A stretch of 60,936 nt of DNA from Scenedesmus sp. PABB004 (Eukaryota), in assembly GCA_014905635.1 (NCBI GenBank), contig JABVCE010000038.1, positions 186,001-246,936 on the forward strand. The letters are read 5' to 3'. The translations under genes and the position numbers were made by a program. The notes below the pieces were generated by a model that was not told the DNA's origin, did not search any database, and was given only the letters and a program-made list of their open reading frames with translations. Within the stretch, counting starts at the first letter, position 1; each line of letters starts with the position of its first letter. Below are positions 1 through 48,686 of the stretch, piece after piece.

Positions 1-1599
1 TGCGGCGCCTTGAAGGTGCCGCTCGCGGGGAAGGTCCGGCTGATGTCGGCGGTGTAGCACCGAAACTCGGCGCCTGCGCGCGGCGTGCGGCGGGCGCGGC
101 GCGTGACGGCGGGGCGCTGGCGAGCCGCCGCCGCCGCCGCTGTCGCGGCGGAGCGAGGTCGAGCGAGCAGGGGGTCCCGAACGTTCGGCCCCCGCCCCGC
201 CGCACGCGCGCCGTCCAGGGCGCCCCGCCCCCCGCCCAAAAAAAACAAACCCTAAACCCCGAGCCGCACCCGCGTCGACGAGCACCAGGTCGCCCTCAGC
301 GAGCGTCGCCGCGTTGCGCTCGTAGTGCAGCACAGCCGCGTTGCGCCCCGCGCCGACGATGCAGGGGTAGCCGAGCGCCGTGAGGCCGCGCAGCGCCGCG
401 GCGTGCACAAACGCGGCCTGCGGCGGCGCGCGGCGCGGAGGGGTGGGCCCGCCGGCGGCGCTGCACCGCGCGGCCCCGCCGCGCCGCCGCCGCCGCCTGC
501 CCCGCGCGCCGCGCCGCACCTCGAGCTGAAACTCGGTCACACCCGGCGCCGCGGCCGCCCACATCGCGGCGTGCCCCGCGCCGCTGCCCGCGCTCGCGGC
601 GAGGAGGCAGCCGACCTCGGCGGCCGTCTTGGTCGCGCGCGCGCGCGCGAGCGCCGCGCCGAGGAACGCCGCGCTCGGCACGGCGCCCGCGGCCGCGGCG
701 CCCTGCAGCCCCGCGAGCTGCTGCGCCTGCGACGCCTGGTGGCCGCGCGCGCCGGGCAGCGCGAGCGCGGCGGCCATCGCGTCGGGGTGGTCCTGCTCGC
801 GCACGTGCAGCGTCTCCACGCCGCCATGGCGCGCCTTCACGTACGCCGGCAGGTCCTCGGCGTATATGCACTCGTCCGCCCCCGCCGCCTCGGCGAGCGC
901 GTCCGCGCTCGGCAGCCCGCCCCACCACACCGCCGCCTCCGCGGGCACCTGCGGCGCGCACAACGCGCGGCGCGCGCGGGCGTTAGGCGTCGGCGCGCCG
1001 CCGAGCCGGGCACGCGCGCCGCGTGCCGGCCGCGCCGTCGCCGTGCCTTGGGCGCGACGAGGACGAAGCGCTGGCTCTCCGGATCGATGAGCGCGCCAAA
1101 GCCCGGCTCGCAGACGCCGGTCAAATAGGCAAAGTCTGAGGACGGCCGGAACTTGTGATAAACGTCAGCGCCATTCCTGTGCGCCAGGTCGCCTCCAGAG
1201 ACGTAGATGAGCCCGCCTGCGAGCGGCGGCGGCGGCGGAGGCATGAGCCGCGCGCAGCAGCGGCCGGCGCCGCGGCGCGCCGCGCCGCGCCGCGCCTGCG
1301 AGCGTCTCCTGGCACAGCTTTGCACGCAGCTCCCTGCACTGCTCCCGGTGGTCAATCACTGGGAAGCGCGGGTCGACGGCCTGCTGCGCAGCCGGCACCA
1401 CGGCCGGCGCTGCTGCTGCTGCCGCCGCCGCTGCAGCTCCGCGGCGCCTGCGCGCGCGGTGCCGAGCTCAGCAGCAGCGTCTTGCGGCAGCCGTCGCGCA
1501 GCTCGCCAGCAGCGCCGCGCACCTGGCTCGCGGGGCGGCGGCGAGCGGCGTGGCAGCAGCGCCGCTGCCGCCCACTCGATTCCCGCTCGCGCGCAGCAT
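1..1599 (-). CDS. Xaa-Pro aminopeptidase (peptidase M24B, aminopeptidase P-like); spliced, 3' end runs off the window, start codon tentative
   Basis: Exon peptides HKFRPSSDFAYLTGVCEPGFGALIDP (AMP_N domain, ~1050-1215) and GDLVLVDA..GAEFRCYTADISRTFPASGTFKAP (metal-binding Asp motifs, ~270-295 and 1-73). Candidate ATG at 1599 begins an Ala/Arg/Ser-rich, transit-peptide-like exon. Confidence 0.9.
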
Positions 1600-1948
1600 T
1601 GCCGCTCGCCCACTGGCTGGGTGCCCACGCACGTGCCGGCACTGTCGCTGTCACCGCGCCGGCGACGGGGCTCGTGGCGGCGCCGCGGTCAACCACGAGG
1701 GCTCTGGCGGGTGACGTTCGAGCGCCAGCAGCCGACGTCCGGGCCGCAGCACTCTCAGTGGCTATTGTTCCGCTAGCAGCAGCAGCTCGCACCGCTCAGC
1801 CGCAGGTCGCCCCACCCCAGAATCACCAGCCCGCGCCGCGCCGCGCTGCGCGCTGTGCTCCTCTTTGAGGGCGACGCCGCCCTGCCGCCAGGCGGACGCC
1901 GGCTCGTCCACTCCGCCGGCCGCCAGCTGGCTGTGGGCGCTGCGGCAG

Positions 1949-2051
1949 GTGCACGCACTCGCGCACCCAGCGCAGGGCGTGGAACTCCTGACTGTCTTGT
2001 TGCGACGGCCAGGAGTTCCACGCCCTGCGCTGGGTGCGCGCGTGCGTGCAC
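1949..2051. repeat. Near-perfect inverted repeat (hairpin 1)
   Basis: 1960-1990 is the exact reverse complement of 2010-2040 (31 bp); after one mismatch, 1949-1958 pairs with 2042-2051. Confidence 0.97.
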
Positions 2052-2091
2052 ACCTTCCGCGGCGCGGCGCCGCCGGCTGCCGGCCGGCCGC

Positions 2092-2175
2092 GCGCGCAGG
2101 CCTCCAGCCGGGGCTGCCAGTCCATCACGTGTTGGAACGTGATGGGCTGGCAGCGCCGGCTGGCGGCCTGGGCGC
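2092..2175. repeat. Inverted repeat (hairpin 2)
   Basis: gcgcgcaggcctccagccggggctgccagtccatcacgt / loop gttgga / acgtgatgggctggcagcgccggctggcggcctgggcgc, with a few single mismatches. Confidence 0.95.
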
Positions 2176-2240
2176 GCCTGCTCGTGGGCGCGGCGGCGCT
2201 GCACGCCGGGCTGCCGCGCCCTCCCCGCGACGGGCCTCGG

Positions 2241-2275
2241 TGGTGACGTCTGTGCCGGCGGCACAGACGTCACCA
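2241..2275. repeat. Perfect 16-bp hairpin (hairpin 3)
   Basis: tggtgacgtctgtgcc (2241-2256), loop ggc, ggcacagacgtcacca (2260-2275). Confidence 0.95.
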
Positions 2276-2312
2276 ACCGGCATGCCGGCGCCCGACGACG
2301 GCGGCGCGCTCG

Positions 2313-2497
2313 GTCGCACTCGGTCGCGCTGCTCGGTCGTACTGCTTGGGCTTGAGCTTGAGCACCCGCCCGTCCCCATCCTGCCCGCTCCCCGACCGCC
2401 CGTGGTTTGCGCTCACGGGCGGCCGGCGAGCGGGACGATGGGGAGGGGTGTGTGGGTGGTCAAGCTCCGCCTCGAGCAGCGCGACCGCGCGTGCGGC
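2313..2497. repeat. Long interrupted inverted repeat (hairpin 4)
   Basis: 2321-2335 pairs perfectly with 2473-2487; nested stems gagcttga/tcaagctc, ccccatc/gatgggg, cccgctc/gagcggg and ccgcccgtg/cacgggcgg. Confidence 0.88.
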
Positions 2498-2528
2498 TTT
2501 GCTGCGCAGCAGGGAGGGTTGACTCCGG

Positions 2529-2654
2529 GGGCTGCAGCGGCGCACGCGGCGGGACGGGCGCGCCGCGCGTGCGCATGAAGACGGCCTGCACCTGGGCACC
2601 TATCTCGCGCACGCGCGGCGCGCCCGCACCACCTCGTGCGCCGCGCTGCAGCCC
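2529..2654. repeat. Inverted repeat (hairpin 5)
   Basis: 2555-2574 pairs perfectly with 2607-2626 (20 bp); outer gggctgcagc/gctgcagccc. Confidence 0.88.
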
Positions 2655-2672
2655 TGTGCGTCGGGCGGCGCG

Positions 2673-2815
2673 CGAGCGTGCGCGCGCGCCACGCTGCTGC
2701 GCGAGGGCGAGGCAGTGCGTATGGATGCTCCGGCGGCGCACCGCTGGAGCTTCCGCACGCATCGCCTCACTGCGCGAGCTCACGCGCGTCGCGCAGCAGA
2801 GGCGCTGCACGCTCG
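2673..2815. repeat. Inverted repeat (hairpin 6)
   Basis: Inner stem 2709-2768 (gaggcagtgcgtatggatgctccggcgg-cgca-ccgctggagcttccgcacgcatcgcctc); outer ctgctgcgcga/tcgcgcagcag and cgagcgtgc/gcacgctcg. Confidence 0.85.
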
Positions 2816-2827
2816 GCGGCCGCTGGC

Positions 2828-2960
2828 GCGCGCGCGGGCCCGGCGCACCGCCCGGCGCGGCGGGCGCCAGCCCTGCACGTGCCGCTCAAACAGCTGCTTG
2901 AGCGCTGCGTCCAGGGCTGGCACCCGCCCGCGGCGCGCGGTGCGCCGGGCCCGCGCGCGC
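2828..2960. repeat. Inverted repeat (hairpin 7)
   Basis: 2828-2851 pairs perfectly with 2937-2960 (24 bp); inner gccagccctg/cagggctggc and cgctcaa/ttgagcg. Confidence 0.92.
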
Positions 2961-3621
2961 ACTCTGCGCGTAGACGAGTGCAGGCCAAGCAGGACCTGCA
3001 GCCGTTGTCTTGGGCCTGACCACGTGGAGGTGCTAGTGGTGGGTGCGTCGGGCGCCGGCCGCACAAGGTGCGGTGCTGCGGCGCGTGCGTGCGCCGTGAG
3101 CGCCGAGGCGGCCCGACGCGTGCGCGGTGCCTGGAGGGCTGCTGCTGGGGCCGGGCGCGCATGAAATGGCTTGAGGCTGCCGTGCAACCATCAACCGTGT
3201 TGCCAAACCGCCCGAGCGCACCCCCCACCGCCGCGGTCGGTCAGCCGCGCTGCGCGCCCGCTCCGCGCGCCCCGGCGTCCGGCGGCTCGGGCCCTCGGCC
3301 GGCGCGACGCTGCAGGCGTTGGAGGGCACGGGCCTCCCCGCGCGCGGAGGGCGCGGCGGTCGGCCGGGCGGAGCCCGTGCCGAGCGCCGCGCGTCCCGGC
3401 CGCGGCAGGTGCGCGGCTCTGCGCGGCGGCACAGCCGCACCCTTCGCGCTCGCTCCCGCCCGCCCCGCGCTTCAGCTCGGCCCTTTCACGCGCCCTCATC
3501 ACCGCGCTCCCTGCTCAGCCCGCCGCGTCCCCGTGCGCGCCGCGGCCGCCAGCAGCACCACGCGGCGCCGCCTGCGGCGCCCAGCGCTCGCCGCCCGCCC
3601 GCGGGCCCAGGGCAGCGCGCG

Positions 3622-6600
3622 ATGCTCCGATCGCTCTTCATCACGGCGGCGGCGCTGGCGGCGGTGCTGCTGGCCGGCGGCGCGCCGGCCTCGGCGCAGC
3701 CGCTGCCGCCGCCCGCCGCGGCCGCGCCGGCCCTCAACGCCAGCGCCGGCCTCGACGCCAGCGCCGGCCTCGACGCCGGCGCCGGCCCACGGCCGACCGC
3801 GCCGCTGCCGGCCACCGACCCCGCGTCGCCCGACTTCACGCTGCCCCCGGGCGCGGTCGCGCACCTCGAGGCCCTCGTCGCGCGCGTCGCCGGCAGCGCC
3901 GGCGCCCTGCAAGGCGCCGCCGCCTCGCAGGACGCCGCCGGCGCGCGCGCGGCGGGCTTTGTCTACGCCAACGGCACCCGCCTGCACCTGCGCGGCGAGC
4001 CGTTTGACCTCATCGGCGCCAACGCCTACTGGCTCGTCGACTTCTACGGGCTCAGCTGGGGGCGCCGCCAGATCGACGAGTTCCTCTCGGCCGCGCAGGC
4101 GCACGCCGCGCGCGCGCGCTGCCAGCTGGCCCCCGCGCCGCGCCGCGCCGCGCGGGGAGGCGCGCCGCGCGCGCCGCGGGAGCGCCCCTCGCGCTGGGCG
4201 GGGGCGGAGGCCGAGCTGGCCGCCCGCGCGCGCCTGCGCAGGCGCTGGGCCTGTCGGTCATCCGCACGTGGGCGTTCAACACAGGTGCGCCCGCGCCCTG
4301 CCCGTGCGCCGCCCGCCCGCCCGCCTGCGGCGCCGTCCCGCCCGCGCTCAGCGTGCCGCTGCCGCGCGCCCGCGAGCACACCACACACGCGCGCACACGC
4401 GCACCCGCCCGCGCTGCGCTGCGCCGCAGGCCTGCCGCGCGCGGCGGCGTCGTACGACGCCGTGCAGCTCGCGGGCCTGGACTACGTGATCTGGGCCGCC
4501 AAGGTGCGCGGCCTGCGCCTCAACCTGGCCCTGGGCAACTCGTGGAACGCCTACAAGGGCCCCGAGGAGTGGCTCGCCATGGCCACCGGCTCCGCGGGTG
4601 TGCGCGCGCGGCGCCGTGTGCGCCGTGGGGCCAACCCGCGCGGCGCTGAGCCGCGGCGCGCCGCGGCTGCGCGCGCCGCGCGCGCCGCCGCCCTGACGGC
4701 TGCGTCCGCCCCGCGTGCGCACGCGCGCAGAGGGCAAGGACGTGCTTGACTTTTACTCCGACCCGCGCGCGCGGGCGCTGTACAAGCTCCACATCTGGGG
4801 CCTCCTTACGTGCGGTTGGAGCGACGGTGGACGCCCCGGGGCGCCGCGCGTGGCCGCGCTCCCTCCGAGGGAGCGCGCCTCCCCCGCAGCCCTGGCGCGG
4901 GGCCGCCCCGCGGCGCGCGTGGGCTCGCCTGCCGCTCACGCGCCGCCGTCGCTGCCCACGCCGCCGCCGGCAGGCGCGTCAACCCGCTCACCGGCCTCGC
5001 GCTGCGCGACGACCCCACCGTGCTGGCCTGGAACGTTATCAACGAGCCTCGCTGCCCGGGTGCGGCGTGCACCGCGCGCCGCCGCGGCTCGATCGTCCCC
5101 GCAGCCCCAGCGCGCGCGTGCCGCGTGCTGCGCGCCGCGCGCAGGCTGCGTGGAGCCGGCGCAGCAGGCCGCGCACCAGGGCTGGGTCGCCGACGTCGCC
5201 GCCTTCCTGCGCGCGGTCGACCCCCGGCACCTCATCTCCGCCTCGACCGAGGGCTTCTTCGTGGAGGGTGCGACCCGCGCGCCGCGGCAGCAGCCCGCCG
5301 CCGCGCTGCACCCGTGCCCCGCGCTGCGCCCTTGGCAGCCCGCCGCCGCGCAGCCCGCGCCCCGCGCGCGCAGCCCGCACCCACCCACCCACCGCTCGCC
5401 CCCCGCTCCACGCGCTGCCAACCGCACCCCTCCAGCAGACCCTGCCAGCCTGCTGCACCTCTACAACCCCGGCCCCGGCGCGCAGTGCGACGGCGAGGAC
5501 TGGCTGCGCATCAACGCGCTCCCGCAGGCGCGCCGCCGCCGCGCCCTCGCAGCACGCCGCGCCGCGCCGCTCCCGCGCGCCGCGCGCCGCCCGCCTGTTG
5601 TTTTGCCCGGCGCGCTGTCCCACGCACCCGCGCATGCGTGCGCGCTCGCCGCGCCGTCACGCCGCTGACGTGGATTGGTTACGTCAGATTGACTACGCCA
5701 GCATCCACGTGTATGACAGGCACATGGAGCTCCTGCCCGCGCCGTCGGGCAACCCGGACTGGCCCAACTGGCGCGCCCCGCACGCGCGGCGCCGGCTGCC
5801 GCACGCGCGCGCGCCGCGCCCCAGCGCGTCGCGGCCAGGCGGCTGCCGGCGGGCAGCTCAGGCCCGCCCTGCGCGCCCGCGCCGCGTGCCGCCCAAACCT
5901 GCCGCCAGGGTGTACTGCGAGTTTGACTGCTACCTCAACTGGTTCAAGGCCTACGTCGAGGTGCGCCGCGCGGTCAGCCTTGCTGCACCGGGCGCTGCCC
6001 TGTGCGGCCAGACGCGCGCGCGCGCGCGCACGCGCCGCCGACCGCGCGCGCGCCCGACCCCCGCGCCAGCTGCACGCGTTCCTGTCGGCGCGCGTGCTGC
6101 GCAAGCCGACCGTCATCGAGGAGTTCGGCCTCACCTGGCACAAGAAGACGCTGCCGCAGCAGCGCGCGCTCTTCCAGGCGCGGCGGCGGCGGCGCGCGGG
6201 CGCGGGGCACCGCCGGCACGCCGGCGGCGCTGCGGCCCGCGCCCGCCCGCGCCCTCACGACGCCGATGCCGCGGCGCGCGCCAGGTCGCGCTCGACCTCA
6301 CGCTCGCGTCGGCCGCGGCGGGCGGGGCGATCGCGGGCGCGATGTTCTGGAACGCCGCGCACAACGACACCGTCGACGCGGGTGCGCGGAGGGTTCAGGG
6401 TCAACCCCCGCGCCTCTGTGTGTGTGCAAGCTGCCCTGCGGCGCGCGTGGTGTGGGTGGGCTACAGCCCGCCCTGCCGCGGATGCGCAGCCCACACGCAC
6501 CTGCCGCGGCGCGGCGCAGACGGCTACAACGTGCGCATCGACCGCCCCGCCCTCCTGGACCCGCGCTCCGCGATGCCGCCCCCGGGCGCGCTGCCGGCGG

Positions 6601-7602
6601 GCGTGGTCAGCGCGGCCGCGGCCGAGGCGCTCACGCCCGGTGCGCCCGCTGCGCGCGCTGCGCGGCACCGCCCTCACCGCGCCCGCGCCGGCGCCGCCCG
6701 GCTGTCAGCGGACCTGAAATGGCGGCTTGCGACTGACCGGCACCCCGCTGCGCTGCCCCGCCAGAGAACAATACCGGCCCCGCGCTGCCGGACGTGGTCT
6801 TCACCTCTGCCGGCGCGCCGCCTGAGCTGGCGGTGCAGATGGCGGCCGCACCGGCCGCGCCCCTGCCACTGGAGCCTGCCGCGGCGGGCAGCCCCCTCGC
6901 TGCCGCCGCCAACGCGAGCGCCGCCGCCAACGCGAACGCCGCCGCCAACGCGAGCGCCGCCGCCAACGCGAGCGCCGCCGCCAACGCGAGCGCCGCGGCC
7001 GCCGCCGCCGCGAACGCCAGCGCGGCGCCGGCAGGAGCGGCCGGCCCTGTCCCGCCGCCGGCGCTCACCGCGTCGACGCCGCCGCTGGCAGAGCCGCTGC
7101 CGCCGGCCCTGGGCGCGGTGGCGACCGCCGGCCGCCGCCTGCTGGCGGCGCGGCGCCGGCGCCGGCGCCGCCACTGGCAGCCCAGCGCGGCGCTCGTCGC
7201 AGTTCCCCCGGCGGCCCCGGCGCCGCGCTGGCCGCCGCCACGGGCGCGGGCGTGGCGGAGCACCTTGCCGCGACGTCAGGCCAGCCCTGGCGCGCGGCGC
7301 CCGAGGCGGGCGCCGCGCGCGCCCCGGGCGCCGACGCGGCGCCGCCGCACCACCACCGGCGCCGCGCGCAGCAGGTCGACGCGCTGGACGCGTTCCGGCG
7401 TGCCAGCTGGCGCGAGGCGTGCGCGGTCGAGGCGGCGAAAACCTGGCGACCGTACATGCTGTGGAACATCAGCACCGACGGCTCGCTGCTGGCCCAGCCG
7501 CGCGTCGCGGCTGCGCTCGCCGGCGGGGACGTGGTCGGCGTCATCAGCGAGGCGACCGCGGCGCTGGCGGAGCTGCGGCGCGCGCGCGAGCGGGCGCGCT
7601 GA
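3622..7602 (+). CDS. Secreted GH5 endo-beta-1,4-mannanase-like protein (GH5_7 type), about 14 exons
   Basis: Signal peptide MLRSLFITAAALAAVLLAGG; motifs GANAYWL, GLSVIRTWAFN, GLDYVIWAAK, RVNPLTGLALRDDPTVLAWNVINEPRC (acid/base Glu), DYASIHVY, KPTVIEEFG (nucleophile Glu), GAMFWN, DGYNV. Stop TGA at 7600-7602. Confidence 0.92.
6902..6991 (+). repeat. Coding 18-bp tandem repeat x5 encoding AAANAS
   Basis: Unit gccgccgccaacgcgagc (one copy ends aac) inside a mannanase exon. Confidence 0.9.
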
Positions 7603-7881
7603 GCCGTGCTGGGCGAGCGGGCGGGCGGCGCGGCGCATGCTGCCAGCTGCCGCGGTGGCGGCCGCGCGGCAATGAGAGCTAGCAGCGCTGGTGGTGGGGC
7701 AGCTAGGTCAGAGTTGCTGTGGCGAGGGCGGTCGGCTGTGTCGCTGGGCCGGCGGCGGGGCGCGGTGGCGGGCCAGCGGGCGCGGTGGCAACTTGCAGCT
7801 CGCGGCGCCCCGTCACTCAAACTCCAACCGCGCGGCATGCCGTGCTCCTTGGAACACTCCACCGCCGGCCTCGCGGCCGCC

Positions 7882-9861
7882 TCACGCCTGGGCCGCCGCA
7901 GCCTGGGCCGCAGCCGCCGCAGGCTTGGCCTCAGCCGCAGCCTTGGCCGCAGCCGCCGCGGCCTTGGCCTCAGCCTCAGCCTTGGCCGCAGCCGCCGCCG
8001 CGGCCTTGGCCGCAGCCGCCGCAGCCTCCTCCTCCTTCCTCTCCTCCTCCAGCTTGGTGAGGAGGTCGCGCAGGCTGGCGGACTTGCCGCTCCACGGCGA
8101 CGGCCAGTCACCCTTGGCAGCGAACTCTGCGCGCGTGTCATAAATGCAGCTGTAACGACGCGAGCCGCTGGGGGTCGTGCTCGCCTCCTGCCACGCAAAG
8201 TCCCACAGCTCGCGCACTGCCGCGCGGCTGTAGCGGCCGCGCTCGCTGCCGATGCTGCGCTCCACGCGCGCGCTCTCGTCGCGCACGAGCGCCGCCAGGC
8301 TCTTGTCGCGCGCCTCGTACGCGGCGCAAAAGGCGACGTAGCGGTCGTAAGCGTCGTCCAGCAGGCCGTACACCTGCGGCGACGGCACGCGGCTCGCGAG
8401 CCGATCGGCGGCGGGCGCAGCTCTGCGCGGCGCGGCCCAGGCCCACTGCCGGCCCGCGCGGCGAGCTCGCCGGCCCTCTGCGCACCTCGGCGCTGCCGAT
8501 CAGGTCCAGCACGCCCTGCAGCGCCGGCGCGTCCGCCGAGGGCGGCAGGAGGAGGGGCAGCAGGCTGGCAGAGCCAGCCGAGAACCTGCGGCGGCGGTGG
8601 CGGCGGCCGTGAGGCGGTGAGGCCGCGGAGCTGCCAGGCAGCCAGGTGGCGGCACAGCAGGGCTCACTTGTGCAGCGGGATGGGCTCCAGGCCGCGCAGG
8701 AGCGAGCTCGGCGCGTCCAGCAGCGCACGCACGCGCGCCTGGCCCGCCGCCGCCTCGGCGTCGGGCGTGCCCGCCGGCAGCGTGACCGCGGGCAGGAGCG
8801 CGGTGTGGCGCGCCAGCGCGGCCATGGTCGCCAGGTCCAGCTTGGACGGCCCGCTAGGCAGCAGGTAGAGGCAGGCGGTCACCGTGTGCTGCAGGCTGCC
8901 GCACGCGACGCTCCTGCGGCGGCGCGGGCGGCGGCGTGAACGGCAGCGCCAGGGAGCGCGCGCCGCGCTGCAGCGCACTGGCTCACTTTTGCAGGCCCTT
9001 GCTGCCGCCGAGCTGGGCGTAGTCCTTCTCCTGCTGGCCCAGCAGGTGCGTCACGAGCGTCTCCACGTGCTGCACGGGGTCCAGGCTGAACGCCTGCCCG
9101 GGCGAGTCCTGCGCGCCAGCAGCGGCGCGCCCGCAGCGGCAGCAGGAGGAGCTCAGGCGCGGGTCGGCAGCGCGGGCGGCTGGCTGCGGGGCTCACGCGC
9201 GCGTGCTGTGACAGCCGGGCGTGCAAGCACACCTGGAAGGTGTACACCATCTCCCGGCAGGCCTTGGGCAGCGTGATGGGGTCCAGGCTGGTCGCCCACG
9301 CGACGGGGTCGCGCGCAAACGCATCATGCGGCTCAACCTCCTCGGCGGGCTTGCCCTCGGCGGGCTTGCCCTCGGCGTTGTCGACCTCGGCGGGCGCCAC
9401 GCCGGAGCCCTCGGCGGGCGCCGCGCCCTTGCCGGCGGCCGGTGCGCCGGCGTCCGCCGGCGTCGGGGCCTTGGCCAGCGCCAGCGCGGCGCCCGTGGTG
9501 TCCCTCCCAGTGTACAGCGCGCCGCCAGCAATCAGCAGGTTGACGTGCGTGCGGATGTGCCGCGGCGGCAGGTCGGGCTTGAGGCTGGCCGACGCCGCGT
9601 TGGCCAGGTCTGCGCCCGACCAGCGCGCGCGCGGCGCGCGACGTGCCAGTGGGTTGCCGCCTGCGCGCGGCGGCCGCAGCGAGGCATTGGATTGCACCCG
9701 GCCGTGCTGGGGGCGTGGCGTGGGAGCCACCTGCGCGCCCGTGCCGCACCGGGGCCGCGCAGCGCGACGCCGCCGCTCGGCGCCGCGGCAAGCTGCCGGC
9801 CGGCCTGGCCCTGGCGCAGGGCGTGAGCCCGGGGCGCCGGGCAGCACGTGGCGAGCTGCAT
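7882..9861 (-). CDS. Degenerate septin-like (P-loop GTPase fold) protein with C-terminal Ala/Glu/Lys helix; 5' end uncertain
   Basis: Spliced peptides HVNLLIAGGALYTGRDTT (degenerate G1), YTFQ|DSPG (G3 DxxG), HVETLVTHLLGQQEKDY, VTACLYLLPSGPSKLDLATMAALARHTALLPAVT (septin CLYF...LD..M..L....PV pattern), LLDDAYDRY. Confidence 0.6.
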
Positions 9862-10042: not shown

Positions 10043-12633
10043 TCAGGTGCCGATGACCGCCCGCCCGCCGCCGACCTCCAGCACGCCGTGCGCGCCACCG
10101 TTCGCGGGCTCGCCGCCGCTCCCGGGCTCGCCCCCGGCGGGCGGCGGCGGCCGGGCGTAGAACCGGCGCCAGAGCCAGTGCCGCTCCCACGCGCGCGCGA
10201 GGCTCTCGAGCGGCTCCGCGCGGCCCTCCGGCAGCGCCGCGACGGCGAAGAGCATCACCCCGGCGGTGGTCCCCGTGGCGACCCAAATCACGTTGGTGCC
10301 CATGCGGCAGAGCAGGGTCCCCCGAATCGCGGTCGAGAGGCTGCGCGCGCAGCGTGGCGGCGGCGGGCGCGGGGCGGGCGCGGGGCGCGCGCGCGGCTCG
10401 GTGGGCCGCCCTGCCGCGCTGGGCCGCGGTCGCAGCTCAAACAAGAGCGGCGCAGAGGGCGCCGGCGGCGTGCAACGCCGCCAAGAAAGCCGCCGCACCC
10501 TGGACTCCCAGGCCCGCACCTGCGCATGAAAAAGTCGACAGCGAGCGCGAGGCCGACCGCGTGCGCGCGCGTCGCGAGCGGCTGGCTGGACGTGTAGACC
10601 GCGGGCGCCATCGCCCAGAGCCCGCCGACGCTCGCCGCGGCGTTGGTCAGGTACAGCACGAGCGCCGCGGTCGTCGCGCCGCGGCCGAGCGGGCGCGGCG
10701 ACGCGACGAGCAGCGCGCCGACGCCGGCCCAGGTGAGCGCGCCGATCGCGCAGCCGGCGGCGATCATGCGGCGCGGGCTGAAGCGCAACGCGACCACGAC
10801 GGCGACCAGCCCGGCTGCGGGCGGGGCGCGCGCGGCGCGTGAGCGCGCAGGCGCGCGCGGCGCCGCGCTGCAGCGCTCGGCGCGGCGCACCGACTGTGCA
10901 CGTCGCGCCCAGCACGGCCGTGCCGTCGAGCAACGCGTTGGCGTTAAACATTACCGGGAGCAGCCCAACCAGGGCGGGCCCCAAGACCATGAAATGCCCT
11001 GCGCCGCGCGTGGGAGTGAGCGGGCGGCAGGGCGGGGCGCGCAGCGGGTGCGCGGGGCGCGCGCCGCGCACCCGAGACCTCCACGGACGCCGCGAGCATG
11101 CAGCCGGCGATGAGCGGCGGCAGGTTGGGCCGGTGCACCAGCGCGCGCAACTGCTTGGCCATCACATGCGCCTGCGGGGCGCGGCGGCGGCGGTCCGAGC
11201 CTCTCGGCCGCGCCGCCGCGCGCGCCGGCAGGCCGCCCTGGACCGCCGCGCCGCCGCGCCGGCGGGGCTCCCCGGGCCGCGGCGGCTCACGTTTGCGCGC
11301 ACCGCGCCGCTCGGGCGGCCGGCGGCCTTCCAAATCTCCATCAGCTCCGCGTCGATCTGCTCCGCGTGGAACGGCCCCCGAATCACAAACAGCATCTCCC
11401 GGCCCTCGGTGAGCCGCCCGCGCTGCACGAGGCTGTGCGGCGTCTCGGGGAGCCAGCAGAGCAGGAGCAGCATGACCGCGCTCGGCCAGCCCGCCATCGC
11501 GACCATCGCGCGCCAGCCGTGCGGGCCGACGTCGGCGTCGGCGACCGCCTTCATCACCACCAGCGCCACGCACATGCCCGCCTGGCGGCCGAGCGCGACG
11601 GCCGCAAAGCCCGCGCCGCGCCAGCGCGGCGGCGAGACCTCGGCGACCTCCAGGAACGCCGCGAGCAGCAGCGTGCTCGCGCCCGCGCCGACGAGCAGGT
11701 TGCCCACGAGGAGCTGGGCCCATTGGAACGACGCCGCCTGCAGCACCATGCCTGCGTAGCATGGGCGGCGCGGACTCTCTGCCGGCCGCGACGCGGGCGC
11801 GCGCGCGCGCGGGCGGGCGAGGCGCGCAGAGCAGCCGAGGGCGCAGATCCCTCAGCGCGACGCGCACCTGCGAGGAAGAGGGCGTTCGCCGCGCACCAGA
11901 CGACCTTGCGGCCAAACAGCCGGCACGTCCAGGCGGCCGGCAAGGTCGCGACGGCCGACGCGAGCATGCGCACGGCGACAAACCACGCGCGCGCGGTGTT
12001 GACCGCGCTGCACCAGCACGGCTCGGGCGGCTCGCACGCGGCGAGCGTCTTGCCCCGGTTCACGCCGCCGAGCGTGAGGCCGCGCGCGGCGAGCTGCGTG
12101 AACGTCTGGCTGATGAACGACCTCCTGCCCCGCCGCGGCGGCGGCGGCGGCAGAGGGGCGGGGGCGGCGGCGGCGGCGGCCGTCGGCGGCAGCGGCCGTC
12201 GGCGGCAGCGGCGGCGGCCGTTGGCGGCGGCCGTCGGCAGCAGCGACGGCGGGGCGTCGCTGAGCCGCGGCGCGCCGGCGGCATGCGCAGCGCGCACTGG
12301 CTCTGGTCCGACATGGCCACGCTGTCAATGAACCCCACAGCATAGCCGGCCGTCATTGTGGCCCAGAGCACGACCTGCGGCGGCCGCTGCGTTGTCGCGC
12401 CGGCTGGTGACGCCCCGCGCTGCTCCGGGCCCGCGCGCCGCACGCACCCAGACGGCGGGCGTGACTTGGTTGCGCTTGCGCGACCCGGTCGGTGCGCGAT
12501 CGCCCGCCGGCGCGCGCATCTGCTGCGCCTGCGCGGGCGGGGGAGCGGCGGCACCGCCGACGGCCGGCAGCGCTGCTGCCGCCGCGCCGCCCGCTGGCCC
12601 GCTGCTGCTCAGCCTGCGCATCAGGTGCGACAT
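10043..12633 (-). CDS. MFS sugar porter family transporter (divergent STP/HUP-like)
   Basis: TCRLFGRK, EVSPPRWRG, GWRAMVAMAGWPS, LPETPHSLVQRG, LPE in the C-terminal half, multiple hydrophobic helices across spliced exons. Confidence 0.85.
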
Positions 12634-13428
12634 TGCTGCGCCCCGAGTCACGCGGCACTCAAACGGGGCGGCCCGGCCATCGGCGGCGGTCGGTTCGATC
12701 GCCGCCGCTGCTGAGCTGAGGTGCCGCTGAGGTGCCGCTGAGCGCCTGGCCTCTGCGCCTGTGTGTGCGCATGTGCTTCGGTACGAGGGGGCGGCAACGC
12801 CTTGCCGGGACCAGCCGCGCTCGTCGCGACGGCTCGTCACCGCCGGCAGCGCGACAAGGAGCCCGCCCGACGCTCGTGCCGCGCGCGCAGTGGGTTCAAG
12901 CCCGATCAGTCCAGACACAAACAAACAACGGTTCTGGGGCCACCGCACACGCGCGCGGCGCCACAAGCAGTGCGCCTGGCCGTGCGACGCGCGCGTCCAG
13001 ACGGCCGTTCAATGAGCACCGACGGCGAGCACCGAACCTTTTCGCGATGCCCCCCCCTGAAAAACCACAGGGCCGAGAGCGCGCTGGCTCAGGCCTCCGC
13101 GCCGCCCCGCGCCTCATGGCTGCGCGCCCGGCGGCGGCGCCGCCGGGTCGTGCACGGCGCGCCCGCGCGCGTCAGCGCGGGGCGGCGCGGAGTGGGTGGG
13201 TGCGTGTGGGAGTGACGCGTGGGTGGCAGCGCAGTGCTCTAGACCCCAACCAGCAGGCGCGACAGCAATCCACAGCGGCCAGCACCAGTGCCGCGAGTGC
13301 AGCCCTGCAATCCCCACCCCGCCCCGCCGCCCACGGCGCCGTCCAGGCCGCCGGTCGCGCCGCCACTCCCGAGCTGGAGCCCCCGGTGCCTCCTCTGCCC
13401 CCCGCCACAGCCGGCCCGTCGTGATTTT

Positions 13429-15922: not shown

Positions 15923-18825
15923 TCAAGGCTGCTCCGCGCCGCCGCCGCTGCCGGCGCCGCCGCCGCTGCCGGCGCCGCCGCCCTCCCAGGCGGCGGGGTC
16001 GATGGCCTCCGCGCAGCAGCTCGCCGCCTCGCCGCCCTCCCCCGCCGCCGCGCTGCTCGACGCCGGCAGCGCCGCGGCGCCGCTGCCGCCGGGGCTGGCG
16101 GCGGCGCCGCCGCCGGGGCTGGCGGCGGCGCCGCCGCCGGCCTCCCACGCCGCCGCGAGCATCGCCGCGACGCCGGCGCCGCCGCCGCCGGTGCCGCCGG
16201 CGCCGCGCGACGCGGAGCTCGCGGCCGCGCCCGAGCTCGCCGACGCGGCGCGGCGGCTGAGCGACGGCGCGGGCGTCACGCCAAACGCGCCGTTGCGGTC
16301 GCGCGCAAACGTGCGCAGATAGTGCGCGGCGTCGATGTCGAGGTTTGCCCGGAACGACCGCCGCGCCGAGCCGGCGGCCGAGCCGGGCGCCGACGGCGGC
16401 GGCGCGTCCAGCATGATGAGCGCGGCCTCGTCCTGCAGCGCCGCGCGCAGCGACGCGCCGTCGCCCCGGCTGTACGTGAGCGCGGCTGGCGGGCGGCGCG
16501 GAGGGGGGAGGCGCGCGCGCGGCGGCGCGGCGGGGGCGGGGCGTCAGACGGGGTTTGGGAGCAGGGCCCCGCACCAGCACCGCGCCGTCGCGCCCGGCGG
16601 CGCGCACCGAGCACGAGCACCGCAAAGCCGCCGGCCTGCAGGAAGCTCCACGCCAGCCACGGCTCGCCGGGCAGCAGCGCGGGGCCGCCGCCCAGCCCCG
16701 GCGCGGTGGGCGCGGGCGCGGTCGCGGGCGCGGGCGCGGGCGCGGCGGGCGGGCCGCCGGCGCGCGCGAGCTCGTCGGCGGCGTCGGGCGCCAGCGCGGC
16801 GGCGACAGCGTATATGACCAGGTTGACGACCCACACAAACAGCGTGCGCACGGCCTGCAGCAGCGTCGTGTCGGCCGCGCTGAGCTCGCCTGCGCGCGTG
16901 CGCGCGTGCGGCGGCGGCGGCGGCGTGAGCGCGGCCGCGCCCGGCCCCCGGCCAGCCCCCCGCCCAGCCCCGGGCCCGCGCGCGCGAGCGCGTGCATTTC
17001 TGCGCGCATTCGCGCCTGCGGTGACCATGCTGCAGAGGTTGTAGCCCTGAAGCGCGCCAGTGTAGGCCGCGAGCAGCCCCGCGAGCAGCGGGCGGCTCCA
17101 GAGCATGGAGAGCGAGTCAAACGAGTCCTCGCTCAGGCCCCAGCCCTCGGCGCCCGCGCCCGCGAGCCCCGCGAGCGGCAGCACGACCAGCAGCTGCGCG
17201 CGCGGCGGGGCGGCGCGCGCGGGGGGTGGGCGCGAGGGGCGGTGCGCGCGCGGGCGCGGCGGGCGTGCGCACTCAACACAGCATCAACAACCCACGCGCG
17301 CACCGTGAGCGCGGCGCCGAGCAGGCCCTGCGCGCCGACGAGCTTGAGCGGCGAGAGCCGCAGCCGCCGGCTGTACCAGGCCTCGTCGATGAGCAGCTGC
17401 CCGGCCGCGACCATCTGGCTCGCCAGCACGAGCCCGACGCCCGCGGCCATCGCGCCGCGCGACCGCGGCGCGGTCGAGCCGCCGTAGCCCGACGCCAGGG
17501 ACGCGGCGGCGACCATGGCGAGGCCGGCCTGGGCGCGGCGCGGGGCGCGGGCGGCAGCGGCGGCGGCGGCGGCGCGGGGCGTGAGGTCGAGCGCGGCTGC
17601 GGGGGCGGAGGCGGGCGCGCGCCGGCGCGTGCCGCCAGCGGCGGCGCGCGCTGGCGCACCGCGCAGCCCGCGAGGCCGCTGACGTGGTGCGCGTTGAGGC
17701 GCTTGCCCCACAGCCCGACGCCGAGCAGCGCGGCGAACAGCAGCAGCGACTGGCGCAGCATCTGCGCCGCCGACGCGGTGATCGCGAGGAGGCCGACGTT
17801 GAGCAGCCCGCTGCTCGCGAGGTCGCACAGCGTCGGCACCAGCAGCCGCAGCAGCTCCAGGCTCGGCAGCCGGCCGCGCGCGGCGCCGCCGCCGCCGGGC
17901 AGCAGCAGCAGCGTCGCCTCCATCATCTGCGCGGCACGCGGCGGCGGCCCCGCGGCAGCAGCGGCGGCGGGAGCCCGTCGGCGAGTCGCACGGTCGCCGC
18001 GGGGGCGCGGGGCCACCGTGCCGCCGCGCGGTCGCGCGCCGTCGCGGCCGCAGCAGCACCACGCACGCGCGCACCTCGTCGTCGTCCGCGCCGGGGTGCA
18101 GCAGCGGTGCCGCGAGCGGGTCGAGCCGCCGCCGCACGGGCGCGCGCTTGGGCCGCAGCCGGCGCGCCGACGCGCGCACGAGGTCCAGCAGCAGCGACAG
18201 CGGCAGATTCATCGACATGCCTTCGGCGCGGCGGGCGAGGGCGGGGCGCCAGCGGCAGGGGCACCAGGGGCGTCAGGGGCACCAGGGGCGTCAGGGGCGC
18301 CGCGCCCGGGCGGCGGAGCTGCTGCTCTGCCCCGCTGCTGCCGCCCGGCAGCTGCCTCGCCGCCGCGTCCGCACCGACAAACATGCAGAGCACGAGGAAC
18401 CAGGGCTTGTGGAAGGGGCGCACCGTGCCGTCGCGGCCGACCGCCTCAACCTCATACGCTGCGCGCGCCGCGGCGGCGGCAGCGCGCGCGCGGTCAGCGC
18501 GGGCGCGCGCGGACGTGCGCGGGGCGGGGCGCCCGCTGCCGCGGGCCCCGCGGCGCGCACCGAGCTTGCCGAGCGTCGACACGGCCACGCCGCACGCGAC
18601 GAGCCCCGCGGCGCCGAGCCGGCGCACGCGCGGGCCGGGCGGCGCGGTCGGCGGCGCCGGCGCGTCGGCGTACGCGTGCAGGCCGTCCGCGAGCGCATAC
18701 GTGAGGAGCGTCGCGCGCTGCGCGTGCTCGCGCACCCACACCGCGGTGTGCGAGATGAAGGGGCTGGGCGAGAAGGAGCCGCCGGAGCCCTGCAGGCGCG
18801 GCCCGCCGTCCGGGCCGCCAGCCAT
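15923..18825 (-). CDS. SLC35F6-like nucleotide-sugar/DMT transporter
   Basis: PFHKPWFLVLCMFV, LLVPTLCDLASSGLLNVGLLAITASAAQMLRQS, LSPLKLVGAQGLLG, LLQAVRTLFVWV, GEPWLAWSFLQAGGF. Confidence 0.85.
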
Positions 18826-23100: not shown

Positions 23101-24716
23101 GGGCAGCTGGGCGGACGCGTACGCGGCCGCGCTCGCGCCGCACGTCGCCGCGCGCGAGCCGCACGAGCTGGTGTCGCTGCTCGGCGCGCTGCCCGCGCTC
23201 GGCGGCGCGGCGGCGCAGCCCGGCCTCGCGGCGGCGCTGCTGGGCGGCCTGCGGCCGGCGCTGCCGGCGCTGTCCGCGAAGCAGCTGTCCGAGGTGCTCG
23301 TCGCCGCGCACGCGTGCGGCGCGCCGCCGGGCGAGGCGTGGCTCGCCGCCGCGGTCGATGCGGTCGCTGCGCGCCTGCCCGACTTCCGCGGCCGCCAGCT
23401 CATCGCGACGCTCGCGGCGCTCGCGCGCCTGCGCGCGGCGCCCGACCCCGCGGTGCTCGCCGCCGCCGCGGACGCGGCGGCGGACCGCCTCGGCGCGGGC
23501 GTGTCGGCGCTGCTGCTCGTGGAGCTGCTGTGGGCGCTGACCGCGCTGCGCGTGCAGCCGGGGCCCGCCTGGATGGCACGGTTCGAGGCGCGCCTGCTGG
23601 AGAAGGGCCCCGAGCGCCTCGGCCCGGCGCAGCTCAGCCGCCTGGGGTGGTGCCTCGCCGCGCTGCAGCGCAAGCCCGGGCCGCTGCTGATGGCGCGCTA
23701 CCTCGACGCGGCGCGCGACGCTCTGCCAGCCATGGACGCGCGCAGGTGCGAGGGGCCGGCGGGGCAGCCGGCGAGGCAGCCGGCGTGCTGCGCTGCGCGC
23801 CAGCCTGCTCGCGCCCGCCGCCGCCCGACGCCGCCCGCCTGCGCCGCGCCGCAGCCTCGCCGACACGCTGTGGGCGTGCGCGATGCTGGACGAGCGCCCC
23901 GGACGGCAGTGGCTGGACGCGTTTGTCGGCGAGAGCCGCCGCCAGCTGCCGGCGTTCCCCGGCCCGGCGCTCGTGACGGTGCTGTGGTCGTTTGCGCTGC
24001 TGCGGCACCGCCCGCCGAGCGACTGGCTGCACCGCTGCACGGCCGCGCTGACCGCGTGCCTCGAGGCCAGCGGCGCGGCGGCGGCCGCGGCGGCGTCGCG
24101 CGGCGCGCCCGGCGCCGCGCTGCCGCCGCTGCGGCGTCCGCAGCTGCCCGGCGCGGCCGCGGCCGCGGCGTGGCCCGCCGCCGGCGCTGCGCCGGCGGCC
24201 GGCGGCGCCGCGCCGGCGCCGCTCGGCGCGCAGCAGGTGTCGCGCCTCGCGTGGGCGCTCGCGGTGCTCGAGGTCCGCGCGCCGGGGCAGCTCATGCTGG
24301 CGCTCGTGCAGCGTGCCGAGGCGCAGCTCGGCGCGCTGGACGCCGACGCGCTCGCGCAGCTCGCGTGGGCGCTCGGCCGGCTGGACGAGACCCCGGACAA
24401 GGCCTGGGCGCGCCGCTTCGCCACGAGCGCGCGCGCGCACCTGCTGGCGAGCGGCGCCGGCGCCGGCGCGCGCAGGGCGCTCGCGCTCGTGCCGGTGCCT
24501 GCGGCGGCGCCGGCGCCGGCGCCGGCGCCGGCCAGCCTCGCGGCGGCCGCCGCCGCCGCGGGCGTGACGGCGCAGCGCGACATCGCGCAGGCGCTGAGCC
24601 GCGCGGGCGCGGGCCGGCCGCCGCCCACCAAGGCGGCGCTGCTCGCGCGGCTGCGGCAGCTCCGCCCTGCGGGCGCCGCGCCGCGCGCGGCGGCGGACGT
24701 CGTGTCCTCGCGGTGA
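19373..24716 (+). CDS. Octotricopeptide repeat (OPR, Tbc2-like) organellar RNA-binding protein; one clear intron at about 23746-23853
   Basis: LDHIHVSAALVQLARL followed by many ~38-aa repeats: ARQVSNVLWAAAALGLRPP, PQGFANTIWAVAML, PQELSSTLWALGSLGVAPPPAW, AQALSNQLWA. Confidence 0.88.
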
Positions 24717-29363: not shown

Positions 29364-29395
<32 letters not shown>

Positions 29396-29753
29396 GCGCC
29401 CGCCGGCGCGCGCGCGCGCCGGCGGCGGCGGCAGCGGGGGCGGCGCCGAGCCGGGCGCGGCGGCGCCGGGCGCGGCGTGCCGCCCCGACCTGGGCGCCGC
29501 GCTGGTGGTGCCGCCGGGGCTGCTGCTTCTCGCGGTGGTGCACGCGCAGGAGACGGAGCCGGGGCAGCCGACGGCGGAGGGCGCCGCGCGGATGGCCGCG
29601 GCGCAGCGGCTGGTCGGCGGCCGCGGCGCGGCGGCCGTCGTGCCAGGGCGCGAGCTGTTCAGCGAGCTGCCGGGCGGCGAGAGCGGCGCCGACGCCTGTG
29701 CGGGCGGCGCCTTTGACGAGGGCCTCGCCGCGGACCTGGCGCTCGCGTGGTGA
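27466..29753 (+). CDS. Protein with an At4g00755-like (F-box-associated, galactose-binding-like) domain; apparent frame break near 28900-28990
   Basis: ASSTDDATQAIGNTL, SFWSSTGS, EALTYEL, YQLG|YPVYPP, LQTFPL, LQLRLIGKPQAQREDGRFYVAI match the motif order I recall for that plant family. Confidence 0.65.
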
Positions 29754-48422: not shown

Positions 48423-48686
48423 GGGAGCCGGCGGGCGGGGCGCCGGAGCGCGCCGCGGGGGGCGTCGGGGCAGCGTGCAGGCACTTGCGGGGGCGCGGCG
48501 GCTGCGGCTGGGCTGCATGCGTGATGGAAACGCGTGTGACTTGCCCGCCCTGTCCGGCCGACCGCGACGCGCTGCAGCCCGCCAGCTGGCGGGCTGGAAG
48601 AGCGCGCGCGCGGGCCCCGCCGCCCGGCCCCGCGCAGCGCAGCGGCGGTCACAGGAGCGCCGGCGCGCCCGCGCGCGGCGCCGCGC

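Follow-up and report, generated by a model that had tools for sequence, protein, structure and literature searches.

The DNA upstream of two divergently transcribed genes in the nuclear genome of Scenedesmus sp. PABB004 carries an array of seven adjoining stem-loops, located at 1913-2962 of the 60,936-nt stretch that was analysed as a whole (the window). The initial annotation had described seven adjacent hairpins here, and they are indeed present, with ~961 of the 1050 bases lying inside them. The array is read here, with a confidence falling just short of even, as seven independent local inverted duplications, or quasi-palindromes. The preferred and still tentative account of their origin is that fold-back or template-switch duplications recurred at this site as at a local hot spot, in which case the array would be a mutational by-product rather than a dedicated RNA gene.

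On the minus strand, a gene for aminopeptidase P (M24B family) occupies 1..1599, with its start codon at 1599 and its 3' part beyond the window edge. Its protein is 99% identical to the NCBI protein HT031_006578 and matches the Pfam families Peptidase_M24 (2.5e-54) and AMP_N (3.7e-21). On the plus strand, the 5' exons of a GH5 endo-beta-mannanase-like gene occupy 3622..4602, the start codon at 3622 being taken from the sequence and the gene continuing past 4602; the best PDB match of its two exons is the tomato mannanase 1rh9 (E 0.051 and 4e-4), in colinear order. The gap between these divergent genes had been taken for the largest non-coding stretch of the window, which a crude codon-score segmentation supports. 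The array does not differ in GC content from its surroundings, and the PABB004 genome is reported, in the available text, to have 78.5% GC and 1.31% repeats (PMC12571836). In the nearest sequenced relatives the aminopeptidase protein is merely 51-52% identical, and a search of metagenome contigs with this protein returned one locus, at 35% identity. Two freshwater metagenome runs share 0.10 and 0.07 of sampled words with the window. Clean cover in them is limited to one contig of 229 nt that is identical to 1623-1851 and one of 160 nt that is identical to 1661-1820; neither run cleanly covers the array, and the remaining pieces and joints come from other organisms through short GC-rich matches.

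The units are quasi-palindromes of 88-185 nt, described here without assignment to a strand, abutting one another, with spacers of 0-32 nt and centre-to-centre distances of 125-181 nt. RNA folding was scored against 100 dinucleotide shuffles per unit on each strand, and the paired z-scores below refer to the two strands. H1 (1913..2090) is a 178-nt quasi-palindrome (z -13.1 / -13.4; -14.6 with DNA parameters). In its core at 1949-2051, 48-nt arms that are 94% complementary flank a 7-nt spacer (z -16.3 / -17.4) and include a 31-bp perfect repeat, 1960-1990 / 2010-2040. H2 (2090..2177) adjoins H1 and is an 88-nt quasi-palindrome with 41-nt arms, 90% complementary around a 6-nt spacer (z -12.4 / -11.1; DNA z -13.0). 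At the core of H3 (2241-2275; z -6.5 / -8.1), the two perfectly complementary 17-nt arms of an inverted repeat are separated by a single nucleotide, within an extended unit at 2225..2292 (z -5.2 / -4.2). H4 (2316..2500) measures ~185 nt with an arm identity of ~70% (z -9.2 / -10.7), and combines an inner core, 2384-2404 / 2414-2434, that is 90% identical across a 9-nt spacer with an outer perfect pair of 15 bp at 2321-2335 / 2473-2487.

The 143-nt H5 (2520..2662; z -8.0 / -9.0) has arms at 2537-2574 / 2607-2644 that are 89% identical around a 32-nt spacer, and includes a 20-bp perfect repeat. H6 (2662..2826), at 165 nt, is the most decayed of the seven, with an arm identity of ~64% (z -6.8 / -6.7). 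The array ends with H7 (2826..2962), a 137-nt palindrome (z -11.3 / -13.7) whose outer arms, 2828-2860 / 2928-2960, are 94% identical with a 24-bp perfect repeat, and whose inner arms, 2859-2893 / 2894-2928, meet with a 0-nt spacer. Perfect cores of 31, 15, 20 and 24 bp had been noted previously and are borne out, while the one given as 16 bp is in fact 17 bp. The earlier remark that stems include many A/T pairs also holds, with 8 such pairs in the 31-bp core and 6 in the 17-bp core. Likewise, no hairpin duplicates another: significant matches within the region occur only between a unit and its own reverse complement.

Every unit folds far better than dinucleotide-shuffled sequence on either strand (z -4.2 to -17.4), and none of the 100 shuffles equalled the observed energy. 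With DNA parameters, z ranges from -5.7 to -14.6 in the five units tested, and flanking intergenic DNA gives values near 0. The RNA reading is thus not refuted by folding at the level of shuffled controls, which the initial annotation had named as a possible refutation. The window of 61 kb contains three perfect inverted repeats with arms of at least 20 nt, all of them inside the array. A palindrome scan of the window returned four hits of at least 80 bits (H1, H2, H7 and one CAG/CTG repeat), compared with 0 in each of 10 block shuffles. Among ~1216 GC-corrected folding windows of 150 nt, 15 of the 40 most extreme fall in 1901-2851. The initial annotation had extended the locus to 1650-3150 by including three smaller stems. 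Two of these, 1650-1715 and 2981-3018, fold at chance level (z -0.9 to -1.6), and the true feature is therefore 1913-2962. The third, at 3045..3119, is marginal (z -3.4 / -3.3), and its membership in the array is doubtful.

The remark that other intergenic regions show nothing comparable is true of the window. However, one 690-nt intron of an SNF2 gene at 58.3-58.9 kb contains two more long hairpins (z -5.1 to -7.3). These intron hairpins are certainly transcribed, as pre-mRNA. Ten other stretches that score as non-coding (0.56-1.17 kb) hold no palindrome above 62 bits, and those above 50 bits are GCC-type simple sequence; for comparison, the array includes units of 127, 89 and 142 bits. Hairpin candidates at 6350-6490, 12030-12170, 13075-13200 and 48470-48610 were not comparable (z -1.7 to -2.8), and those at 33.8, 16.0 and 29.3 kb are GCA/GCC/CAG simple sequence, the first of them in coding DNA. 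A tandem repeat search yielded short arrays only, with scores of 30-55.

Across the whole window, no Rfam 15 family reaches its gathering threshold, and snoRNA, tRNA, SRP, RNase P and other known RNAs went undetected in this search. Seven sub-threshold matches scored 22-34 bits against thresholds of 47-150, and consist of generic miRNA-hairpin look-alikes and one antitoxin RNA. None of 16 open reading frames scored above the Pfam cut-off; for the third frame pair of H1/H2 and for most H5-H7 frames, Pfam was the sole search. A 287-aa plus-strand frame found a single low-complexity match (E 7.9e-4) among 1.84 billion representatives, and a protein search with a 148-aa minus-strand frame returned no match. 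Codon log-odds are at most 0.22 in 11 of 13 segments (12 arms plus the whole of H3), against ~0.5 for real exons, and the H2 arms (14 codons each) are the only ones near exon level. The plus-strand frame 1992-2246 has a weak 3-base periodicity, with GC at the three codon positions of 0.74, 0.69 and 0.92. A 105-nt stretch at 2118-2222 scores as coding-like and has no homologue in the searches made, which for the plus-strand peptide outside H2 were confined to Pfam. Pfam, protein searches and codon scores thus gave no evidence for a protein-coding mRNA over the region, and the non-coding status assigned to it earlier stands. A derivation of the arms as inverted copies of coding genes was likewise unsupported by Pfam, protein searches and codon scores.

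The arms of the units differ in their degree of decay, with identities that span 64% to 86% across units and reach up to 100% in cores. Of 86 arm mismatches, 51 are wobble-incompatible on either strand, and differences between C and G form the biggest class (29 of 86); 36 gap columns occur besides. Oppositions of the G.U type number 21 on the plus strand and 14 on the minus strand (binomial p = 0.31), and in the two SNF2-intron hairpins they number 10 on the transcribed (sense) strand versus 4. Because strand bias is missing, 51 of the 86 mismatches are of the non-wobble kind and no Rfam family is matched, the sequence does not favour an RNA under selection. Perfect tracts exceed the expectation of uniform decay in three of the seven units, namely H1 (p 0.01), H3 (0.007) and H5 (0.02).

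In the preferred account, the 3' end of a growing strand would fold back on itself or switch to the complementary strand, 20-90 nt would then be copied in reverse, and the strand end would return to its template. Point changes and further short switches would leave perfect patches within older, decayed arms, and the overlong perfect tracts in H1, H3 and H5 are as expected from repeated short switches. The inverted copy lies beside its source, with spacers of 0 nt in H7, 1 nt in H3, 6 nt in H2, 7 nt in H1, 9 nt in H4 and 32 nt in H5. The innermost pairs of H3 and H7 would be impossible in an RNA loop, and that symmetry therefore arose in DNA; since it reaches the axis in these two units, it suggests that DNA was duplicated in inverted orientation. 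Equal folding on both strands and with DNA parameters is also counted in favour of a DNA-level origin. According to the available parts of two reports, template switching makes whole hairpins in a single event (PMC10710096) and expands inverted repeats near yeast promoters (PMC13100816).

We infer that the locus itself is a hot spot. Existing palindromes and (GC)n tracts may stall replication and thereby make it one, and negative supercoiling between the divergent genes would favour the extrusion of hairpins or cruciforms. Judged by their sequences, the units probably differ in age. Long palindromes whose spacers are short tend to be unstable, and their persistence requires youth or some benefit. 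Neutral accumulation gives no explanation for the tight clustering of seven units, the perfect cores of 17-31 bp could equally reflect selection on a small-RNA duplex, and the small, non-significant excess of G.U on the plus strand, similar to that in the intron hairpins, is a possible weak signal at the RNA level. Any transcript across the array would fold into duplexes of 17-90 bp that a Dicer-like enzyme could cut, and would thus provide a source from which young hairpin small RNAs could emerge.

The alternative closest to the original proposal is a polycistronic hairpin small-RNA locus, which is unlikely but retains an appreciable chance. Here, a Dicer-like enzyme would cut the stems into miRNAs or hairpin siRNAs of 20-22 nt, with the precursor made either from a dedicated promoter or by upstream or 5'-leader transcription belonging to a flanking gene, and the hairpins, likewise born by inverted duplication, would have been retained for their products. 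The shape of the array is fitting, with long near-perfect stems that contain perfect duplexes of 17-31 bp; stable stem-loops with near-perfect duplexes of at least 21 nt are present (cores of 31, 24 and 20 bp, and of 17 and 15 bp within longer imperfect stems). The concentration of seven units in 1 kb, with none in other non-coding stretches, suggests that the locus matters, and the perfect cores beyond uniform decay in three of seven units, the slight plus-strand G.U excess and the same sense-strand trend in the SNF2 intron are also in line with such products. In the available accounts of Chlamydomonas, the stem-loops that give rise to most miRNAs lie in introns and UTRs of coding RNAs, and some miRNAs originate from rather long hairpins (PMC4817775; PMC5511227). 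No match to a known miRNA family is to be expected, because algal miRNAs are reported to be unconserved even between Chlamydomonas and Volvox (PMC5511227). The available part of another study places the split of AGO clades in an ancestor of the Chlorophyceae, a statement that does not concern PABB004 itself (PMC10226591). However, the strand bias is non-significant, 51 of 86 mismatches break pairing on both strands, and the palindromes of H3 and H7 extend into the loop, a feature that is not required for RNA function. TGTAA, the chlorophycean polyadenylation signal, does not occur in 1-8150. A combined scenario, in itself rather improbable, is a self-propagating 'hairpin nursery' in which serial fold-back duplications between divergent promoters, together with transcription and a Dicer-like enzyme, generate young, unrelated polycistronic miRNA or hairpin-siRNA genes. 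Upstream or divergent transcription would supply the hairpins to the enzyme, and, if true, this would be a template-switch-born set of miRNAs or hairpin siRNAs in a green alga outside Volvocales.

A nest of MITEs or foldback transposons, in which each hairpin is a separate non-autonomous DNA transposon in a tolerant intergenic site, has a small probability. The whole-length inverted repeats of 90-190 nt have the typical shape of a palindromic MITE, and the two hairpins of similar size lie in a large intron, a frequent MITE setting; terminal inverted repeats are present only trivially, as every unit is an inverted repeat from end to end. However, target-site duplications do not exceed chance, since flanking direct repeats (with a slack of +/-4 nt) are 2-5 nt long and within the range of 2000 random placements (commonest 3 and 4 nt), and the one longer repeat, of 8 nt at the H5 core, belongs to the palindromic stem. 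The nine hairpins in the window are all unrelated, so that nine families would have to share 61 kb of a genome whose reported repeat content is 1.31% (PMC12571836), and no second copy of any unit was found in the window. The units abut exactly, with no interruption of one by another, and the centres of H3 and H7 lack a spacer. A 22-mer of the H1 core had 0 exact matches in collections of metagenomes, prokaryote genomes and viral contigs, which is weak evidence because the alga itself seems absent from them. Slightly less probable still is a functional DNA element, in which cruciform-forming palindromes and (GC)n tracts would take up the negative supercoils that arise between the divergent promoters, or which would act as an origin of replication or as an insulator bound by proteins. 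The array sits precisely in the gap between the two divergent genes and folds as significantly with DNA as with RNA parameters, and the missing strand bias fits a double-stranded role, as may the centre-to-centre spacing; inverted-repeat expansion near yeast promoters can alter expression, according to the available text of PMC13100816. Seven palindromes of ~150 bp may act as a sink for negative supercoiling from the two genes. Against such an element, no result gave it direct support, GC content is no different from the surroundings, decayed units (64-75% identity) would extrude poorly, and the window has no other gene pair with comparable upstream DNA. It is highly improbable that the array encodes one large structured non-coding RNA or belongs to a known RNA family. 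Only the dense secondary structure speaks for this, with minimum free energies for 1900-3000 of -903 (plus strand) and -883 (minus strand) kcal/mol, but the fold consists of separate hairpins in a row, with a 7-bp closing stem as the only long-range helix, the two strands fold equally well, and no Rfam gathering score was reached. An assembly or sequencing artefact is given a similarly slight chance. Fold-back chimeras are possible in long-read assemblies and neither metagenome run covers the array, but arm identity is 64-94% instead of complete, short, adjacent and all-different units are not a product of chimeric reads, and similar hairpins lie within an otherwise normal intron.

Among known systems, template-switch hairpins, which in primates include de novo miRNA genes (PMC10710096, available part), offer several parallels to the duplication reading. 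In both cases only a short spacer separates the inverted copy from its adjacent source, perfect pairing originates at the DNA level in a promoter-proximal or other non-coding site, and arm identity is patchy, as repeated short switches predict (PMC10710096; PMC13100816). Unlike those examples, the arms in PABB004 reach 48-90 nt and no ancestral sequence shows the events, and seven unrelated abutting units per 1 kb are not described in the available text of either report. The long-hairpin precursors of Chlamydomonas reinhardtii resemble the array in being chlorophycean, near-perfect, non-coding stem-loops, introns included, and conservation beyond the species is expected for neither (PMC4817775; PMC5511227). 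However, sequenced small RNAs and dependence on DCL3 define the Chlamydomonas loci, which lie in introns or UTRs of coding RNAs, whereas the PABB004 array is known from DNA alone and lies between two gene starts; a cluster of seven hairpins is not described in the available parts of those papers (PMC4817775; PMC5511227).

Polycistronic miRNA clusters and Drosophila-type hpRNA loci have a defined strand, and their hairpins are usually conserved or mutual copies. They share with the array an arrangement of hairpins side by side on what would be a single precursor, but the PABB004 units are unique and both strands fold alike. Palindromic MITEs and foldback elements are alike in their size of 90-190 nt, full-length symmetry and occurrence at intron and intergenic sites; in contrast, the array lacks target-site duplications, yielded no second copy and is abutting rather than nested.

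New miRNA genes have been proposed to start out as inverted duplications that form hairpins. Seven such births side by side and at different times, in a compact and nearly repeat-free genome, would provide a natural system for the study of gene birth, and the array could serve as a test case for whether extreme GC content promotes the birth of hairpins. A limited literature search found no dedicated study of small-RNA biology in Scenedesmaceae. If expressed, the array would be a polycistronic cluster of unrelated hairpins, which is not described for green algae in the available text of the literature examined; if not expressed, it would still mark either a site where mutation is strongly concentrated or an element that acts in the DNA between the two promoters. 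In either case, palindromes of this kind are hard to assemble, amplify and clone, which is relevant to the engineering of PABB004.

The array, seven abutting inverted repeats (quasi-palindromes H1 to H7) at 1913-2962, lies between two genes. On the left, the annotated aminopeptidase P protein, mapped onto the window, starts at 1599 on the minus strand and carries Peptidase_M24 (2.5e-54) and AMP_N (3.7e-21) domains in Pfam. A 145-residue translation of one of its exons matches NCBI protein HT031_006578 from Scenedesmus sp. PABB004 along its entire length at 99% identity; the next matches are in Scenedesmus sp. NREL 46B-D3 (52%) and Tetradesmus obliquus (51%). To the right, a plus-strand open frame starts at 3622 with what resembles a signal peptide; for two exons of this gene, the best PDB match is tomato GH5 endo-beta-mannanase 1rh9 (E 0.051 and 4e-4, in colinear order). 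Given their opposite strands and start codons, the genes diverge, as the initial annotation had read them, across an inter-start gap of 1600-3621. In a crude codon-score segmentation, which assigns 56.5% of the window to coding sequence, this is the longest non-coding stretch, consistent with its earlier description as the largest intergenic gap. The GC content of the window (74-85%) agrees with the 78.5% published for the strain, whose 39.8-Mb genome is described as having 7,092 genes and a repeat share of 1.31%, which, along with that of R. subcapitata, is about the lowest of the order (PMC12571836). Within intergenic DNA of 75-85% GC, one relatively A/T-rich patch stands on each side of the array, at 1740-1830 and 3160-3200. 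These patches are candidates for the core promoters or transcription starts of the divergent pair; in that case both mRNAs would start outside the array, leaving it upstream of each and not within a leader.

Repeat finding over 1500-3300 revealed inverted repeats that differ in arm length and spacing. H1 (1913-2090) has 48-nt arms, 94% complementary, around a 7-nt spacer, H2 (2090-2177) has 41-nt arms (90%, spacer 6 nt), and H3 (2225-2292) has 17-nt arms (100%, spacer 1 nt). In H4 (2316-2500), inner arms of 21 nt (90%, spacer 9 nt) accompany outer arms of 15 nt (100%, spacer 137 nt), while H5 (2520-2662) has 38-nt arms (89%, spacer 32 nt). H6 spans 2662-2826. The outer arms of H7 (2826-2962; 33 nt, 94%, spacer 67 nt) enclose inner arms of 35 nt (83%, spacer 0 nt). 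Perfect cores of 31, 15, 20 and 24 bp are as first reported, and the core given as 16 bp is the 17-nt match in H3. Folding of 1900-3000 yields independent long hairpins in a row for the plus strand (-903 kcal/mol) and the minus strand (-883 kcal/mol) alike. The hairpin centres (about 2000, 2133, 2258, 2409, 2590, 2740 and 2893) are 125-181 nt apart, which is near the size of a nucleosome or Okazaki fragment and may merely mirror unit lengths.

All seven units are far more stable than dinucleotide-shuffled sequence on both strands. With 100 shuffles per segment, z-scores (plus/minus strand) are -13.1/-13.4 for H1, -12.4/-11.1 for H2, -5.2/-4.2 for H3, -9.2/-10.7 for H4, -8.0/-9.0 for H5, -6.8/-6.7 for H6 and -11.3/-13.7 for H7, and no shuffle matched the real folding energy of any unit. 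DNA folding parameters gave -5.7 to -14.6 in the five units examined and +0.6 in a control. Flanking intergenic segments (1716-1900, 3200-3340, 3340-3480 and 3480-3620) have no excess stability (z +2.3 to -1.0). The smaller stems proposed at 1650-1715 and 2981-3018 are non-significant (z -0.9 to -1.6), and that at 3045-3119 is marginal (z -3.4/-3.3).

Self-reverse-complement BLAST of the window found four palindromic matches of at least 80 bits (H1, H2, H7 and a CAG/CTG repeat) vs none in 10 block-wise dinucleotide shuffles; at 60 bits there were six vs a shuffle mean of 0.1. With a spacer of up to 160 nt allowed, the 61 kb contain three perfect inverted repeats with arms of at least 20 nt, all within the array (31, 20 and 24 bp), and those elsewhere are at most 19 nt long and nearly pure G/C. 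The interval 1901-2851 holds 15 of the 40 most extreme 150-nt folding windows after GC correction. None of ten other non-coding-scoring stretches of 0.56-1.17 kb contains a palindrome above 62 bits. The 1 kb of the array holds seven of the window's nine strong hairpins, against none in other non-coding stretches of comparable size. The claim that nothing comparable occurs in other intergenic regions stands for intergenic DNA; only within a 690-nt intron of a plus-strand SNF2-family helicase gene (exon match to SNF2-rel_dom, Pfam, 4.5e-13) does something similar occur, namely hairpins at 58478-58584 (z -7.3/-6.4) and 58690-58812 (z -5.1/-7.0). Four further candidate sites were rejected as not comparable (z -1.7 to -2.8). 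Simple-sequence tracts of CAG/CTG (29277-29399), GCC/GGC (16074-16142) and GCCGGC (24452-24532) also score as palindromes and stable folds, and are the chief false positives for hairpin scans of this genome.

No Rfam family reached its gathering score anywhere in the window, in line with the earlier failure to recognise a known structural RNA. Seven matches in permissive mode (22-34 bits vs thresholds of 47-150; six miRNA hairpin models and one antitoxin RNA) are generic hairpin look-alikes. The units are not copies of one another by BLAST, bearing out the view that the hairpins are mutually unrelated and form no tandem array; no noteworthy tandem repeat was found, and no second copy of any unit in the 61-kb window, where the leftover matches are GC-rich simple sequence of at most 49 bits. 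Flanking direct repeats of 2-5 nt (with 4 nt of slack either way) are in line with 2000 random placements, in which 3 and 4 nt are commonest, so the units have no target-site duplications beyond chance.

None of sixteen ORFs drawn from across the whole region matches a Pfam family above the cut-off. A 287-residue plus-strand ORF through H1 to H5 has a single low-complexity match (E 7.9e-4) among 1.84 billion representatives, and a 148-residue minus-strand ORF through H1 to H3 has none in a protein search. Codon log-odds are at most 0.22 per arm, save for two 14-codon H2 arms, vs about 0.5 in real exons. Given the absence of homologues and these low scores, the region is treated as non-coding. 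The same ORF, Pfam and codon evidence leaves an origin of the arms as inverted copies of genes unsupported. The plus frame 1992-2246 has slight codon periodicity (GC 0.74/0.69/0.92 by codon position). In a crude codon model, 2118-2222 (105 nt; the right H2 arm and following spacer) appears coding-like, and contains a 34-codon frame (ATG 2144, stop 2244-2246); the 84-residue frame enclosing this ORF matches nothing in Pfam.

Divergence between the arms points to an origin in DNA. When each left arm is aligned to its reverse-complemented right partner, 377 positions match and 86 mismatch, with a further 36 gap columns. The mismatches comprise 21 G.U-type oppositions, which could still pair as wobble, on the plus strand, 14 on the minus strand (p = 0.31) and 51 unpaired on either; C/G differences (29 of 86) outnumber every other kind. 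Such a pattern is expected when DNA palindromes decay in a GC-driven genome, and not when selection maintains a structure in RNA of one strand. The symmetry of H3 and H7 reaches the axis (spacers 1 and 0 nt); as the innermost pairs are impossible in an RNA loop, it must have been created in DNA. Arm identities vary widely (H6 0.64; H4 0.70; H3 and H5 0.75; H1, H2 and H7 0.82-0.86), so the units differ in age. The longest perfect tract exceeds that under uniform mismatch scatter in H1 (p 0.01), H3 (0.007) and H5 (0.02) and not in H2, H4, H6 or H7, though this patchiness may partly stem from alignments overrunning true palindrome ends.

Single template-switch replication events are a documented source of complete hairpins and have seeded new primate miRNA genes (PMC10710096), and in yeast, template switching between imperfect inverted-repeat arms near promoters homogenises and expands the repeats (PMC13100816). 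The array fits such a process in its short or absent spacers, unique sequence per unit, mixed ages, patches of perfect identity and absence of transposon hallmarks, and the favoured, inferred explanation is repeated template-switch events at one locus. A role as a source of hairpin small RNAs ranks second: the units would be good substrates if transcribed. In Chlamydomonas, as reported in PMC4817775, DCL3 cuts most miRNAs out of stem-loops in introns or UTRs of coding RNAs, and some hairpin-bearing mRNAs are themselves DCL3 targets; the array, in contrast, lies between two gene starts. Many Chlamydomonas miRNAs are described as deriving imprecisely from fairly long hairpins, and as apparently newly evolved and not conserved even in Volvox (PMC5511227).

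The window contains five TGTAA motifs (2.1 expected from shuffles), the nearest to the array at 8151-8155. TGTAA is the chlorophycean polyadenylation signal, and its absence from 1-8150 leaves an independent array transcript with no obvious 3'-end signal. The chief puzzle is the clustering, which might reflect either a self-reinforcing hot spot or selection. Palindromes and (GC)n tracts may stall replication forks, and negative supercoiling between divergent genes, which promotes hairpin extrusion, could contribute to such a hot spot. Selection would act on a product of the array or on a DNA-level role.

The two SNF2 intron hairpins are certainly transcribed as part of the pre-mRNA, and are therefore better first targets than the array for small-RNA mapping. 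They share no sequence with each other or with the array, and their G.U-type oppositions (10 on the transcribed strand vs 4 on the other) are not significantly biased. The intron also contains (GT)n/(GGGT)n and (CA)n microsatellites. In each of two freshwater metagenome runs, neither of which covers the array cleanly, one short contig (229 and 160 nt) is identical to the 1623-1851 stretch with 0 differences, suggesting that this alga, or one almost identical to it, is present at low abundance in such samples.
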